64,000 nucleotides of DNA from Anaerolineales bacterium (lineage in GTDB: Bacteria; Chloroflexota; Anaerolineae; Anaerolineales; UBA4823). Under the pieces are notes generated by a model. It was not told the origin of the DNA, made no database searches, and worked only from the letters and a program-made list of their open reading frames with translations. The position numbers and the translations under genes were made by a program. Every line of letters begins with the position of its first letter. Within the stretch, counting starts at the first letter, position 1. Shown in pieces: positions 5,602 through 11,632 of the stretch. The stretch covers positions 24,028 to 88,027 of the forward strand of contig JANXBJ010000011.1 in NCBI GenBank assembly GCA_025057645.1, given 5' to 3'.

Positions 5602-6491
5602 CGGACCTTGTGCCAGTAGCGGTAGAGCCCGGAGGCGCTCATCCATGTAGGGTTGAGATATGTAAAATAGGGTTGGTAGGCTTGAGGGAGTTGGTTGCGA
5701 CCTTGTTGGTCGAGCCAATGCCTCAGTGCCTCGGTTAGTTCTTCAAGCGAGGGGTTAGAGAGCATTTGCTGTTCCAACCATTCCTCGAGCAGGTCAAGCT
5801 TTATGAGCAACTGATTGAGGTGGTACTCTACGTCGGAATATACGCCAAAATGCGTGGGAGCGATTGCGCAAAGCTCTAGTTCCTGAAGGCGCCTAAGACT
5901 GGCGCGCCATTTGAGGGGGTCGAATTCAGGAGGAGGGGTGGGAAGCTCGATATGTTTCGTGTCCCCGATGCGAATGCCGCCAATGTCTCCCGCAAAGAGC
6001 GTCCCTTCGAAGAGAACCGTGTAGTGATGGTTAGCGTGTCCGGGGGTGTCGAGGACTTGGAACTTGTGACCATCGATGGAGAGGATTTCGTTGTCTTCTG
6101 GTATATGAAGATGGTCCTCCGGTACCGGTTTGATTTCTCCCCAGAGGGTATCCATAAGTTCACCGTAGATGCGGGAGGCGCTTTGGATCAGTTTTTCGGG
6201 GTTAACCAGATGGGGTGCACCCTTGGGGTGAACGTGGATAGTAGCACCTTGCCGGGCAAGCCATCCGACAGAGCCGGCATGATCGAGATGAATGTGCGTA
6301 ATGAAGACATCTTTCACGTCGGAAAGACTGATTCCGCAATCGGTGAGCGCTTTTTGTAGAGCTGGGATGGTTGTAGAAGGGCCTGGCTCAATTAGCACTG
6401 CTTGGTGAGGTAGGCGTATAAGGTAAGAGGCAATAGCTCCCGGATACCCAAAGAAATTGAGATCAATGGTGATAATTTGGGGAGAGGACAT
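5592..6491 (-). CDS. MBL-fold metallo-hydrolase
   Basis: 'THIHLDHAG' (HxHxDH). I prefer the start at 6491 (MSSPQII...), which has GGAG 8 nt upstream, over the longest ORF start at 6515. Confidence 0.75.
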   Translation of the reverse strand: MSSPQIITIDLNFFGYPGAIASYLIRLPHQAVLIEPGPSTTIPALQKALTDCGISLSDVKDVFITHIHLDHAGSVGWLARQGATIHVHPKGAPHLVNPEKLIQSASRIYGELMDTLWGEIKPVPEDHLHIPEDNEILSIDGHKFQVLDTPGHANHHYTVLFEGTLFAGDIGGIRIGDTKHIELPTPPPEFDPLKWRASLRRLQELELCAIAPTHFGVYSDVEYHLNQLLIKLDLLEEWLEQQMLSNPSLEELTEALRHWLDQQGRNQLPQAYQPYFTYLNPTWMSASGLYRYWHKVRQA

Positions 6492-6587: not shown

Positions 6588-6616
6588 TTGACATTCCCTA
6601 TCATTTGTGGTAAAAT
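6588..6616 (+). promoter_or_regulatory. Sigma-70-type promoter with extended -10, upstream of the small peptide ORF
   Basis: TTGACA (6588-6593), a 17-nt spacer, then TGgTAAAAT with the -10 hexamer at 6611-6616. It lies in an AT-rich intergenic region. An AGGAGG SD precedes the ATG at 6669. Confidence 0.55.
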
Positions 6617-6668: not shown

Positions 6669-6884
6669 ATGACACTCGCCCAAGTTGTCTACCAGCTTTC
6701 TACTGACTCCGAGTTTGCTGCTCGGATGCGAACCGATCCGGAAGGCGCCTTGGCCGAAAAGGGACTCCAGCTTAGTAACGAAGAGAAGGCGTTCCTTGCC
6801 TATGGACTGCGGCGTTCTCTTCACGCCGATGGAAGCCCGGTTTCCATCCAAGAAGTTGCCTCCCTATATCTCGGATGGCGCTAA
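6669..6884 (+). CDS. 71-aa peptide, candidate pheromone/RiPP-like precursor (C-terminus ...ASLYLGWR)
   Basis: Strong SD (taggaggaaggtaaaATG) and promoter. The stop overlaps the downstream gene's ATG by 10 nt. The N-terminus 'DSEFAARMRTDPEGALAEKGLQLSNEE' is leader-like. Confidence 0.5.
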   Translation: MTLAQVVYQLSTDSEFAARMRTDPEGALAEKGLQLSNEEKAFLAYGLRRSLHADGSPVSIQEVASLYLGWR

Positions 6885-7918
6885 GCGAGATTGAGTCGCT
6901 TGCCGCCCGAGAAGTTGGCTTAATTTTTCAAGCGGTCCGTTCTTTTCTGAAAAAGTCTTCCATATCGCACAAATATAAAGATGCGCTATGGAAGACTTTT
7001 ATATCTCTCTCCCCGAGTCCGGGTAAGTTATCAAGGGGAAATTTTACGCTTCTTTTACCTCGTCTCTCTTATCAGGCTTGTGGAGGAGAGGGCGAGTTTG
7101 TATCGAAAATCAGCGCCGCCTGGTATTTATTTTACCTGGCAGCCGATATGATGGACAGCATTCAAGATCAGGAGAATAGGGATGAGGGAAGCATAATATC
7201 GGTCGCAGAGGGCCTCAATCTTGCTTCGGGATTTTTCTTTATCGCCAATGCCTTACTAACCGAAGTGCTGAAGACAAAAAACGACTTCCCTGCCCTCTAC
7301 GATGTGATTGGGGCGTTTCACACCCGACTGCTAGAAATGTGCGACGGACAACAACAGGATTTGTGTGCGAAGGAACTTTCACTAGAGGGTTACCTTGATA
7401 TGTTGCGCAAGAAATCCGGCGCATTTTTCTCGCTGGCTTGTTATATCGGGGCAAGGATGGCTTGTGGGAGGCCGGATTGGTGGAAACGTTTCTCGGATTT
7501 CGGTTCTCACTTGGGTGTTGTGATTCAAATCCTGGATGATTTGGAGGATTGGTATAAGTTGCAGGAACTGCAAAACAATGCACAGTCTGTTCTTCCCAAA
7601 ATGGACTGGTATAAAAACTTACCTGCTGTTTATGCGCTCGAAGTTTTACCCAGTAAGGAAAGAAGGGATTTTAGAAGAGCAATTGATAAGGTCGGAAAAG
7701 AGACAAGCGCAGTAAGCGATTACATTGGGTGGGTCAATCGCTCTGGTGCTGCGCTTTTCATCCTCGCATTGATCGGCCGCGAAGTCGGCTATGCAAAGGA
7801 GGCCTTAAGCGAAGAAGCCCTCGTTGCTCAGCCCAAGGAAGACTTGATTCGCATTCTGGAGCTGTTGGTGGGGAAATTGGGAGCTTGTTCAAACGACCCA
7901 ACTCAGCGCGCTCAGTAA
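6875..7918 (+). CDS. Polyprenyl-synthase-fold (isoprenoid synthase superfamily) protein, ComQ-like candidate
   Basis: 'GQQQDL' (GQxxDL), 'KKSGAFF' (KTAxL-like) and 'VIQILDDLED' (second Asp-rich DDxxD) are present. The first Asp-rich motif is atypical ('DMMDSIQD'). Confidence 0.7.
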   Translation: MALSEIESLAAREVGLIFQAVRSFLKKSSISHKYKDALWKTFISLSPSPGKLSRGNFTLLLPRLSYQACGGEGEFVSKISAAWYLFYLAADMMDSIQDQENRDEGSIISVAEGLNLASGFFFIANALLTEVLKTKNDFPALYDVIGAFHTRLLEMCDGQQQDLCAKELSLEGYLDMLRKKSGAFFSLACYIGARMACGRPDWWKRFSDFGSHLGVVIQILDDLEDWYKLQELQNNAQSVLPKMDWYKNLPAVYALEVLPSKERRDFRRAIDKVGKETSAVSDYIGWVNRSGAALFILALIGREVGYAKEALSEEALVAQPKEDLIRILELLVGKLGACSNDPTQRAQ

Positions 7919-7964: not shown

Positions 7965-10802
7965 ATGAAATCTATTCAGCCTTTGCCGCAAATCAATCAG
8001 AGTCTTCCCTTCCTCATCGGGCTGGTGATCTTCGGAGTCATTATGTGGGTTGTCTTCTTGGTGCTCAAGTATCCCGATGATGGGATTCGTGCCCTCTCGG
8101 CGTCTCACCAAGTTCTTGCCGTTGATGAGCAGAGACCGGGAGGTAACCCCTTACAGGTAGGGGATATCCTGCTAGAAGTCGACGGCCAGCTGCTCTCCGG
8201 TCAAAGTGCATGGTATTGGGGAAAACGCCCCGGCGATTATGTCCGCTTTCGCATCCAGAGGGGAGAGAAGATCCTCTCCGTTGCACTTCAGTTGAGCACA
8301 CCGCAACCCTTAGAACTCTTTCGGAGACTCATACCTCTATCCGTCGCGCTGGTCTTTCTGTTCATTGCTCTTGCAGTTGAGGCATTCGCCCCCCGATCTC
8401 CCACGACAAAGATGTTTTTTGGGTTCTTTGTAGCTTCGAGCTTGTTGCTTACCTCAGGACAAGCCTCCGGACTCGGGCCTGTAATTGTGCTCGATTTGTA
8501 TTATTTTTTGTGGTGGATGGTCGGCCCGATCTCGGTACACTTTCATCTTTATTTTCCCCAACAGAGGAGCAGCCCTCAGATAAAGGGCGGCCTAATCCTC
8601 CTCTACGGAATCGGGTTGCTCGGGGGTTTGTTTCACTTAGGCATGGGAACGACGAGACTTCACGAACATGCCTACTTCAGTTTGCTCATTCCCATCTCTC
8701 GCCTGTTTTTGGCCCTATGTATGTTGTTAAACATCTGTTTACTATACTACAATTACCGCACTACGATTAGCCCTGCAGCCAAGGCAAAAATTCGTCTGAT
8801 TTTGCTAGGTGGAGTTTTGGCGGCTACTCCGTTGGTTACCACCTACCTTGTGCCAGAGGTGCTTCTTAATCGTCCGTTCTTGCCTGCATCGGCCATTTTT
8901 TTGTTTCTTTGCTCGCTGCCTTTGGTCTATGGATACGGGGTGTTTCGCTACCGTCTGATTGAAATCGAGCATCACATCAATCGCGGGGTTACCCTGTTAT
9001 TGGTGGTATTCATTTTAGTGGGCATTTACTCGGGGGTATTCTCTCTGGTGACTCGTTTCCTTCCGCGCCAGTACTTATTCGATCCCGCCCTAAATACCCT
9101 GATTATTCTGTTGCTTGCAGCGACCATTTTGCCTATTTCGCGTCGCGTGCAACGCTTTGTCGATACACTCTTTTATGGCGGTTGGTATGACTATCGTTCG
9201 GCTATCCTCCAAATTACGTCCGGTCTGGAGCAGGTCAATGACCTCTCCACTCTCGCCAGAGAAGTAACAAAGCGGTTGGTGAAAACCCTGAGAGTCGCCG
9301 ATGCTTGCATTTTCCTAAGCGACATTTATGGGGATCTTTCGGTGGTTGCGGTAGCACCTGAGGAAGCTGCCGATCAAGCAAACGGAAAGATGGATCGGGC
9401 AGTACTGCCCCGCAGTAGCTTAGAGTTTCTCTTGAAAGTCGGTGAGGAAGAGAGAGAGACGATTGCAAAGGCGCTGGCTCAGGCAAAGCTTTCGCCACAG
9501 GAGTTTCAATTGCTTCGCAGCCCGCAAGCCTATCTTTGGGTGCCAATTCTCAGTCATCAACAAGTGAAGGGCTTGATCGCCTTAGGACCAAAATACGGAG
9601 GGGACGTCTTCAGTGCTGAGGATATGGATATCCTGCGCGTTGTCTCCCGCAATCTCGGGCCTATAATTGAAAACATCCACTTGCTCAACCAGCTACGTCA
9701 ATATGCTGCGGATTTGGAGCTGCGTGTTCAGGAGCGGACGAGTGAATTATTTGAGGCCAAAAGGCGGGTCGAGGCGATTTTGGCGAGTGTGGGCGATGGT
9801 GTAGTGGTTACAAATCTGAGGGGAGAAATTGAGTTGACGAATCAGGCGATGGAAATCCAGACGTCTTACACTCAGGAGGAAATCCTACAGCGAAATTACT
9901 TTGATTGGTTGGCGCTGAGCAATTCTGTGGCAACAATCGAAGCAATCCAGATTTCTCTATCCAGAGGGGACGTGTGGAACGGAGAATTGGTTCACCAGAG
10001 AAAGAACGGGGAGCTCTACGACATTTTAGTGACCATTGCCCCTGTTCGGGATCAAAGCGGCGAAATCATAAACTATGTCGCTACGCAGCGTGACATTACC
10101 TACCGTAAGGAATTAGAGCGCTTGAAAGATATCTTCGTGGCCGATGTCTCTCATGAGCTGCGCACGCCCATCACGAATATTGCGCTCTATCTCGAGTTAC
10201 TTGAGACAGCACCCGAGTACAAAAGAGAGGAGTATATTCAAGTTCTCAAAGAGCAAAGCCGATTGTTGCGTCGCTTAATCGAAGATATCTTGGATTTATC
10301 CCGATTGGCGATTGGGAAGACCCGTAAAATCGAGTTCGAGCCAGTAGACTTGAACCTTCTCATAGAACAGGCTGTGATCGCTTACACCCCGGCTGTTGAG
10401 AAGGCCGGGCTAAAACTTCTCCTGGAAACCGTTCCCAGTGCGAAGGTGCGGGGAGAGCTCCATTACCTCTCACGCGCTCTCCAAAATCTGCTCGGAAATG
10501 CTATCCAGTACACCCCAAAAGGGTGGGTTAGGATAACAAGCCGGCGAGATGGAGAGTGGGTCTGCTTGGAAGTCCAAGACAGCGGCATCGGAATCCCCGA
10601 GGAGGACTTGCCCCATATTTTTGAGCGTTTCTATCGCGGCAAACTCGTGCGTCAGTCAAAAGTGCCCGGTACCGGTTTAGGGTTGGCTATTGTGAAGGAA
10701 ATTGTAGAGCTTCATAACGGTCAGATCGAGGTGGAAAGTGAGGTGGGAAGAGGGAGTGTGTTCCGGATTTATCTACCAGCCTGGATCGATGGAGATCGTT
10801 GA
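7965..10802 (+). CDS. Polytopic (~10 TM) sensor histidine kinase with a PDZ-like outer loop, then GAF-like, PAS, HisKA and HATPase_c regions
   Basis: H-box 'VADVSHELRTPIT', N-box 'LLGNAIQYT', G-boxes 'DSGIGI' and 'GTGLGLAIV'. About 10 hydrophobic segments lie in aa 15-400. The PDZ-like stretch is 'LQVGDILLEVDGQLL...PGDYVRFRIQRGEK'. Confidence 0.85.
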   Translation: MKSIQPLPQINQSLPFLIGLVIFGVIMWVVFLVLKYPDDGIRALSASHQVLAVDEQRPGGNPLQVGDILLEVDGQLLSGQSAWYWGKRPGDYVRFRIQRGEKILSVALQLSTPQPLELFRRLIPLSVALVFLFIALAVEAFAPRSPTTKMFFGFFVASSLLLTSGQASGLGPVIVLDLYYFLWWMVGPISVHFHLYFPQQRSSPQIKGGLILLYGIGLLGGLFHLGMGTTRLHEHAYFSLLIPISRLFLALCMLLNICLLYYNYRTTISPAAKAKIRLILLGGVLAATPLVTTYLVPEVLLNRPFLPASAIFLFLCSLPLVYGYGVFRYRLIEIEHHINRGVTLLLVVFILVGIYSGVFSLVTRFLPRQYLFDPALNTLIILLLAATILPISRRVQRFVDTLFYGGWYDYRSAILQITSGLEQVNDLSTLAREVTKRLVKTLRVADACIFLSDIYGDLSVVAVAPEEAADQANGKMDRAVLPRSSLEFLLKVGEEERETIAKALAQAKLSPQEFQLLRSPQAYLWVPILSHQQVKGLIALGPKYGGDVFSAEDMDILRVVSRNLGPIIENIHLLNQLRQYAADLELRVQERTSELFEAKRRVEAILASVGDGVVVTNLRGEIELTNQAMEIQTSYTQEEILQRNYFDWLALSNSVATIEAIQISLSRGDVWNGELVHQRKNGELYDILVTIAPVRDQSGEIINYVATQRDITYRKELERLKDIFVADVSHELRTPITNIALYLELLETAPEYKREEYIQVLKEQSRLLRRLIEDILDLSRLAIGKTRKIEFEPVDLNLLIEQAVIAYTPAVEKAGLKLLLETVPSAKVRGELHYLSRALQNLLGNAIQYTPKGWVRITSRRDGEWVCLEVQDSGIGIPEEDLPHIFERFYRGKLVRQSKVPGTGLGLAIVKEIVELHNGQIEVESEVGRGSVFRIYLPAWIDGDR

Positions 10803-11632
10803 TGTCTATGGTTCATCGCATTTACACCGTTTCGGATGCATCTGGTGCCACCGCCGAGCGCGTCGTCAAGGCCGCCTTGCTTCAGTTTGATGCAGTGAAC
10901 GTCGAGGTCATTCGGATCGGGGAAATCCGCACCAAGGAGCAAGTCTGTCAGATTATCGCTGAGGCAGCTGCGAACAAGGGAATTATCGTGCATACCCTCG
11001 TTTCTGAAGAGCTAAGACACTTGATGGTGACCGAAGGACGCGCAATGGATGTAGTTACCATCGACATCATGGGCCCTTTGCTGGTGCGCTTGTCTGACAT
11101 GTTTGCGCTAAAGCCCAAAGGAATTCCGGGGGGAATGACCCCTTTTGACCGAGGTTATTTAGAACGCATAGAAGCCATTGATTATACGGTGCGACACGAT
11201 GATGGCAAAAATCCACACGAATTACATCAAGCTGAGATCGTTTTGGTGGGGGTCTCGCGGACGTCCAAGACACCGCTGAGCTTTTACCTTGCCTATCGAG
11301 GGTGGAAGGTGGCGAATGTTCCGATTGTCTTAGGGATCGAGCCTCCTAAGGAGCTTTTTGAACTGCCTAAGCACCGTGTCGTGGGCTTGACCATCCGTCC
11401 GGAGCGCTTGGCCGAGCTGCGTCGCTCACGAGTGGAGCGCTTAGGCACTCTTCCGGCCGGGTATGCAGACCTAAGTTATATTCAACAAGAGCTCGCTTAC
11501 GCTTATGAGATTTTTGACCGCCGCAGGGACTGGCCACTGGTCGATGTCTCGGTCAAGCCGATCGAGGAAACCGCTTCTGAAGTGCTATCGCTGCTTGGGA
11601 AATCTCTGCAACGTTTTGAAGTGCACGAGTAA
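10802..11632 (+). CDS. PpsR/PDRP-type bifunctional kinase/pyrophosphorylase (DUF299; PEP synthase / PPDK regulatory protein family)
   Basis: P-loop 'LVGVSRTSKTPLSFYLA' and about 275 aa in length. The ATG shares one nt with the kinase stop (TGATG). Confidence 0.8.
   Translation: MSMVHRIYTVSDASGATAERVVKAALLQFDAVNVEVIRIGEIRTKEQVCQIIAEAAANKGIIVHTLVSEELRHLMVTEGRAMDVVTIDIMGPLLVRLSDMFALKPKGIPGGMTPFDRGYLERIEAIDYTVRHDDGKNPHELHQAEIVLVGVSRTSKTPLSFYLAYRGWKVANVPIVLGIEPPKELFELPKHRVVGLTIRPERLAELRRSRVERLGTLPAGYADLSYIQQELAYAYEIFDRRRDWPLVDVSVKPIEETASEVLSLLGKSLQRFEVHE

Follow-up and report, generated by a model that had tools for sequence, protein, structure and literature searches.

The 64-kb window of Anaerolineales DNA analysed here (the whole stretch is meant by this term) encodes a 945-aa sensor histidine kinase (open reading frame (ORF) 7965..10802, + strand) whose loop between the transmembrane (TM) helices TM1 and TM2 is very probably a genuine PDZ-fold domain with outward topology, and the likely best explanation of the locus as a whole is that this domain belongs to the ComP-like sensor of a ComX-ComQ-ComP-like cassette. 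The initial annotation of this DNA knew of no such sensing arrangement in ComP-type kinases, yet the architecture was catalogued in 2019, in a census of bacterial PDZ proteins in which a 'ComP' family of 48 members combines PDZ, HisKA_3 and HATPase_c and includes four proteins from four Chloroflexi genomes (PMC6411480). It was also modelled in 2022, in work that gave Bacillus amyloliquefaciens ComP ten TM segments, placed a PDZ fold between the first two of them (residues 30-108) and proposed that the PDZ domain binds ComX (PMC9620489). The PDZ observation alone is thus not new; the Chloroflexota variant of the known ComP system is. The literature searched contained neither a PAS-HisKA form of a ComP-like receptor nor the near-obligate linkage of such receptors in Anaerolineae to ComQ-like genes and to ComX-like genes with a leader, nor the gene order X-Q-P and a possible REC-HD output. 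An experimental proof of how ComP recognises ComX was likewise not found there, the sole proposal, PDZ binding, being model-based (PMC9620489).

The segment in which a PDZ pattern had first been noticed, nucleotides 8106-8294, corresponds to residues 48-110 (63 residues) and reads exactly as it had been quoted. It is the core of a longer domain, which extends over residues ~36-114 (nucleotides 8070-8306) and opens right after TM1 with the near-invariant YPDDGI, in which P37 and D39 are conserved in at least 90% of the aligned homologues and G40 is invariant. From the single window sequence alone the PDZ call is borderline, as PF13180 matches the isolated stretch with 26.7 bits (E 7e-6) and the same stretch within the whole protein with 21.1 bits, at a curated cut-off of 27; a phmmer search of the PDB with it returned only PDZ domains as top matches (Lin2157, E 4e-4; YlbL; the RseP homologue PA3649). 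This doubt is removed at the level of the family, because a profile built from 38 homologous loops matched, at E<=0.01, 176 different PDZ sequences of the PDB (best E 6.4e-13), with DegP-type proteases and YlbL at the head (6e-13 to 1e-12), and because 37 of the 38 loops matched PF13180 individually. The homologues found (n=130) are nearly all ~945 aa long and labelled Anaerolineales or Chloroflexota. An AlphaFold2 (AF2) model of the domain alone has five strands and a predicted local distance difference test score (pLDDT) of 89.9, and all of its top 50 Foldseek matches in the PDB are PDZ domains (probability 0.99-1.0, TM-score 0.46-0.72), with CtpA, Lmo2051, YlbL, DegS, MucP and HtrA as neighbours. 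Foldseek with the full-length model gave only histidine-kinase, PAS and phytochrome matches and is uninformative on the loop. Family profile, model and structural search support the fold that had been claimed.

The PDZ domain is present in every full-length relative, and natural PDZ-less variants, sought among the related loci, yielded no informative case. The annotated short proteins P0109-P0111 were rejected as PDZ-less candidates, the DNA of two of them (L044, L047) encoding the PDZ domain from residues 12-13 on, and the loci L062 and L078 are split by frameshifts. The complete chromosome CP070639.1 (L053) is not usable, because a masked run of N (locus ~5900-6000) lies exactly where TM1 and the PDZ domain would be encoded.

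The full-length AF2 model (pLDDT 83.6) comprises ten membrane helices, at residues 8-35, 115-141, 146-167, 173-196, 204-227, 238-266, 270-301, 308-327, 335-365 and 374-418, and TM1 (hydrophobic at 16-34, within the first of these helices) and TM2 (the second) flank the loop as had been described. Since the kinase core must be cytoplasmic and the helix number is even, the N-terminus is placed inside and the PDZ domain outside. The positive-inside rule points the same way: in 63 homologues the Lys+Arg sums of the short loops are 7.4 inside versus 1.6 outside, and the PDZ domain is net acidic. Within the limits of prediction, the loop thus faces outward, as the initial annotation had it, and not to the cytoplasm. 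On the predicted cytoplasmic face lie three motifs that are conserved far better than the PDZ domain, namely VHFHLxFPQ (residues 191-199, nucleotides 8535-8561), PLxYGYxxFRxxLIExExHxNRG (residues 319-341, nucleotides 8919-8987; in the window kinase PLVYGYxVFRYRLIEIEHHINRG) and FYGGWYDYR (residues 403-411, nucleotides 9171-9197). A reading of the His/Glu motifs in the bundle (VHFHL, LIEIExH) as an intramembrane protease was rejected, since the residues concerned vary in Bacillus ComP.

For the comparison with Bacillus ComP, a profile of the N-terminal module (residues 1-419; A3) was set against an alignment of 14 database proteins, either named ComP by NCBI or homologues of Bacillus ComP; a ComP sequence served only as bait for fetching the database records, on which the comparison itself was based. 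With hhalign the two aligned at 96.8% probability (E 2.3e-10) over 305 collinear columns, A3 20-346 with ComP 11-337, covering TM1, the PDZ domain and TM2-TM8 and ending in a cytoplasmic loop in which PLxYGYAxFRxxLIExE aligns with ComP IPFxLVYQFVxNKxYDIEF. The invariant PDZ glycine, the L..GD motif and the arginine are common to the Chloroflexota module and Bacillus ComP. Because of this alignment and these shared residues, the TM1-PDZ-9TM module is very probably homologous to the Bacillus ComP sensor. The earlier label of a ComP-type kinase therefore holds for the sensor half and fails for the transmitter, which in ComP is of the HisKA_3 type and here consists of PAS and HisKA (PF00512). Both kinds of transmitter occur behind the module: 42 of the 66 full-length related kinases have the PAS-HisKA form and 23 the HisKA_3 form, the latter ~812 aa long. 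Distant module matches of ~800 aa carry only the name 'signal transduction histidine kinase' and Chloroflexota labels.

The module is widespread, with 585 cluster representatives matched at E<=1e-30. Related loci were collected with the FYGGWYDYR motif as search pattern, and gene order comes from eight loci located by exact protein and from 80 loci taken from one genome per species, the best 80 of the 174 species genomes with relatives; these 80 are all from Chloroflexota (Anaerolineales, Ardenticatenaceae, Promineifilaceae). Counted over the 69 loci with at least 2 kb of upstream sequence, a ComQ-like gene lies directly 5' of the kinase in 66, and in 57 it is itself preceded by a recognisable precursor gene with a Trp at -1 to -3; one of the three loci without a ComQ-like gene is masked sequence. 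The trio of peptide, ComQ-like enzyme and kinase is kept in L005 and L006 although the other flanks there are unrelated, which supports the functional link to the small peptide gene that had been noticed beside the kinase. In L008, a ComQ-like gene, a HisKA_3 kinase and a REC-LuxR gene stand in a row, which is a comQXPA-like layout. Two HisKA_3-type kinases with the PDZ-ten-helix module, in L007 (P0120) and L083, have no ComQ-like gene or peptide upstream, the place being taken in L007 by PadR and a MacB/FtsX transporter; such kinases may be receptors without signal genes of their own, or their signal genes may lie elsewhere. The genome to which the window belongs (3.1 Mb, 95.8% complete) has a single kinase with the module.

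The N-terminal half of the window peptide resembles the NHLP-clan leader model NF038399 (E 5.6e-10, 39.2 bits, just under the cut-off of 40). The precursors share the leader pattern M-[ST]-L-A-Q-V-V-Y...DPE..LA..G..LS.EE.AFL, followed by highly variable tails in which a single Trp is retained at position -1 to -3 (GWR, GWM, NWR, DWA, SWKV, KSW and others). About 10-12 residues before this Trp, at the border of leader and variable tail, the precursors (window 6669-6884; L001-L088) have a hydrophobic-[SR]-[LM]-x-[DE]-[VIL] patch, for example ISMQEV, VRLSEL or VSLADI, which could be a cleavage or enzyme-recognition site. The ComQ-like protein of the window reads DMMDSIQD at the first Asp-rich position (7145-7168) and a canonical DDLED at the second (7535-7549).

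Given the gene linkage and the homology to ComP, the kinase is probably the receptor of the neighbouring peptide. As the third gene product of a putative ComX-ComQ-ComP-like cassette, it would respond to the 71-aa precursor after this has been modified, most likely by prenylation of the Trp next to the C-terminus by the ComQ-like enzyme, cut and released. The resulting lipopeptide would most likely be sensed by the TM1-PDZ-9TM module, as linkage and homology suggest, the PDZ domain most likely contributing to recognition of the pheromone through the variable tail at its C-terminus and the prenyl-Trp engaging the membrane or the helix bundle. From there the signal would pass over the conserved motifs of the cytoplasmic face to GAF-PAS, to the HisKA transmitter and finally to an unlinked response regulator.

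That the PDZ domain itself contacts the peptide C-terminus, by analogy with the peptide-binding PDZ domains of its structural neighbours, is a tentative proposal that falls somewhat short of an even chance. Mature ComX-type pheromones of Bacillus retain the free C-terminus of the precursor. Within the kinase, divergence peaks in the PDZ domain (distance 0.64 versus 0.53 for TM and 0.41 for the histidine kinase (HK) part), and within the peptide it peaks in the tail (0.75 versus 0.37 for the leader). The Bacillus ComPs show a similar distribution, with an identity of 0.36-0.41 in TM1+PDZ, 0.54 in TM2-10 and 0.75-0.83 in the cytoplasmic part, and a second polymorphic stretch at residues 201-280, in the TM region. 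A number of points weigh against the reading developed so far. The window's own sequence stays just below the Pfam cut-off for PDZ domains. The alpha-B helix, one wall of the groove, has no helical residues by DSSP in the PDZ-only model and three in the full-length model, with prolines at its position in members of the family. The carboxylate-loop motif is [DYH]-D-G-[IVL], in which a conserved Asp replaces the usual first hydrophobic residue; the invariant G40 of YP[DYH]DG[IVL] immediately precedes the first strand and aligns with the invariant Gly of Bacillus ComP. The C-terminal residue of the peptide and the offset of the Trp vary among loci, and in L007 and L083 no ComQ adjoins the PDZ module. 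In place of HisKA_3 (PF07730) the kinase has the PF00512 HisKA domain (E 4.6e-17), preceded by PAS and GAF, and no REC-domain ORF was found in the window with a REC profile based on three sequences only. Finally, Mantel and partial Mantel tests of peptide-tail against kinase-region distances in 39 loci gave no PDZ-specific covariation: PDZ, TM, GAF, PAS and HK all correlate with the tail at r 0.49-0.66, with partial correlations of 0.20-0.32, and because all kinase regions correlate alike the signal reflects shared descent and not a coupling specific to the PDZ domain.

Several of these points are equally those of the other leading explanation, in which detection of the prenylated peptide falls to the ten-helix bundle or the lipid interface; the PDZ domain would not bind the ligand but be a lid, a dimerisation or an auto-inhibitory element that tunes the kinase by displacement. 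We regard it as a serious contender, if itself rather less than an even bet, and it forms with direct contact between PDZ and tail the pair of readings with the best odds. If the ligand resembles ComX and StheX (bioRxiv 10.64898/2026.08.29.745113), as expected, it is a lipopeptide with a farnesyl or geranyl group on its Trp and would partition into the membrane; the strongest conservation of the module is in the TM bundle and at the cytoplasmic face and not in the PDZ domain; the groove has the weak alpha-B helix and the atypical carboxylate loop; the partial correlation of the tail with TM, 0.32, is not below that with PDZ, 0.20; and the second polymorphic stretch of Bacillus ComP lies in the TM region. 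On the other hand, Bacillota and Chloroflexota alike have kept the PDZ domain beside TM1, its invariant Gly, GD and Arg included, this domain is in both lineages the most variable region, as a specificity determinant would be, and its nearest structural neighbours, the PDZ domains of DegS, CtpA and MucP, bind C-terminal peptides. It is unlikely that the PDZ domain recognises a target other than the pheromone, such as the C-termini of envelope proteins, a protease or a processing factor, so that the kinase would integrate the state of the envelope or the PDZ domain would recruit the precursor for cleavage. While bacterial PDZ domains mostly work with proteases and in quality control of the envelope (PMC6411480) and the kinases of L007 and L083 have the module without its usual neighbours, the module is coupled to a ComQ-like gene almost throughout the loci counted (66 of 69) and contains neither a protease domain nor conserved catalytic residues in common with Bacillus ComP. 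Least credible, and very improbable, is the reading of the PDZ resemblance as a decayed remnant with no function: the sub-threshold score, the lack of the 'GP' motif of the relatives and the hypervariability of segment 55-62 among the closest relatives, which have almost the same peptide tails, would fit it, but the model of the domain is confident, the window kinase retains the core motifs YPDDGI, LxVGD, GKxPGD and R99, and no full-length relative has lost the domain.

Taking capture of the tail by the PDZ domain further, one may imagine that the PDZ domain of ComP-type receptors in general captures the free C-terminus of prenylated pheromones, that PDZ and tail diversified together, that the mechanism predates the split of Bacillota and Chloroflexota or was exchanged between them, and that Anaerolineae re-wired it to PAS-HisKA; in this full form the idea is speculative and on balance improbable.

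Regarding the output, a REC-HD protein of ~330 aa whose gene overlaps the kinase end follows PAS-HisKA kinases in 11 of 42 loci (for example L005:7841-8836, with PF00072 and PF13487/PF01966), and a REC-LuxR protein follows HisKA_3 kinases in 11 of 23, the domain content being that read in L005 and L008. On a contig other than that of the window, at C60:69569-70519 (L092), the same genome encodes a single full-length REC-HD orthologue with 56% identity, a candidate as partner of the orphan kinase. Such a partner would point to a non-ComA output, and if the PAS-HisKA rewiring is real, a lipopeptide quorum signal might control this output, possibly the turnover of a nucleotide second messenger.

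The features of the locus are collected in Table 1. The ComQ-like ORF and the peptide ORF overlap by 10 nt. Promoter-like sites of the kind listed are as frequent in the region as expected by chance, and position is the sole argument for this one; the transmitter domains have fold matches to HK853/WalK. The gene 3' of the kinase, 10799..11632, starts in the region of the kinase stop codon and is PpsR-like (kinase/pyrophosphorylase, PF03618 in relatives), not a response regulator. As it follows the kinase in L001-L004 and does not do so in L005 and L006, it is probably local synteny and not a component of the system.

Table 1. Features of the kinase locus, in positions of the window
Feature	Position	Strand	Remarks
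Promoter-like site TTGACA-17-TAAAAT, TG-extended	6588..6616	+	5' of peptide gene; 11/12 matches
71-aa ComX-like precursor gene	6669..6884	+	~47-aa NHLP-clan-like leader, variable tail ...LYLGWR (Trp second from C-terminus)
ComQ-like polyprenyl-synthase-fold gene, 347 aa	6875..7918	+	PF00348, E 8.7e-17
Sensor histidine kinase, whole gene, 945 aa	7965..10802	+	ORF, domain profile search and AF2 model
TM1, residues 16-34	8010..8066	+	Predicted to run from inside (N-terminus) to outside; hydrophobicity, AF2 model, positive-inside rule
Extracytoplasmic PDZ domain (predicted), residues 36-114	8070..8306	+	Holds YPDDGI (36-41), LQVGD (63-67), GKRPGD (86-91), R99
Nine further TM helices, residues 115-396	8307..9152	+	AF2 model; collinear with Bacillus ComP TM2-TM8
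Invariant juxtamembrane motif FYGGWYDYR, residues 403-411	9171..9197	+	Conserved columns of homologues
GAF-like domain, residues 426-569	9240..9671	+	PF01590/PF13185, E ~1.5e-5, near threshold
PAS domain, residues 601-712	9765..10100	+	PF13426, E 9e-16
Transmitter: HisKA (PF00512, residues 721-781) and HATPase_c (residues 835-939)	10125..10781	+	E 4.6e-17 and 5.2e-32

The same PDZ-plus-ten-helix sensor is thus widespread in Anaerolineae and nearly always accompanied by a ComQ-like enzyme and a Trp-tailed peptide. These pairs would offer an independent and deeply diverged set of receptors and ligands for testing the mechanism of recognition, and a candidate for the missing receptor of the Chloroflexota ComQ/ComX-like systems, for which the enzyme chemistry was shown in 2026. 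With a PDZ domain this small and confidently folded, the recognition of ComX by ComP would become directly testable.

Among known systems, the closest is ComQXPA of Bacillus, whose ComP shares with the window kinase the predicted ten-helix sensor with a PDZ domain between TM1 and TM2, the genetic coupling to a prenyltransferase of the ComQ type and to a short precursor with Trp, and an N-terminal sensor that is the most polymorphic part of the protein. In contrast to it, the window system comes from Chloroflexota, has a GAF-PAS-HisKA (PF00512) in place of a HisKA_3 transmitter, is without an adjacent ComA-type REC-LuxR regulator, is ordered X-Q-P instead of Q-X-P, and has a precursor with a conserved ~47-aa leader that resembles the NHLP clan. 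The 'ComP' family of the PDZ census matches in its combination of PDZ and histidine kinase; the PAS-HisKA form, the majority among the related kinases (42/66), and the linkage to ComQ and peptide are not described there (PMC6411480). The extracytoplasmic PDZ sensors of DegS, AlgW, RseP/MucP and CtpA, the nearest structural neighbours, recognise free C-terminal peptides and thereby switch the output domain attached to them, which is a protease there and a kinase here, and their ligands are unmodified protein C-termini. Within Chloroflexota, the ComQ homologue StheQ of Sphaerobacter thermophilus farnesylates the adjoining 69-aa StheX in vitro on the Trp second from the C-terminus, in a study that describes no receptor or kinase (bioRxiv 10.64898/2026.08.29.745113). 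By this description the window peptide is alike, with its 71 aa, its Trp second from the end and its adjoining polyprenyl-synthase-fold gene, whereas stheX lies downstream of stheQ and the window peptide gene upstream of the ComQ-like gene, and StheQ has a pseudo-SARM NDxxD where the window enzyme, read directly from the sequence without alignment, has DDLED.

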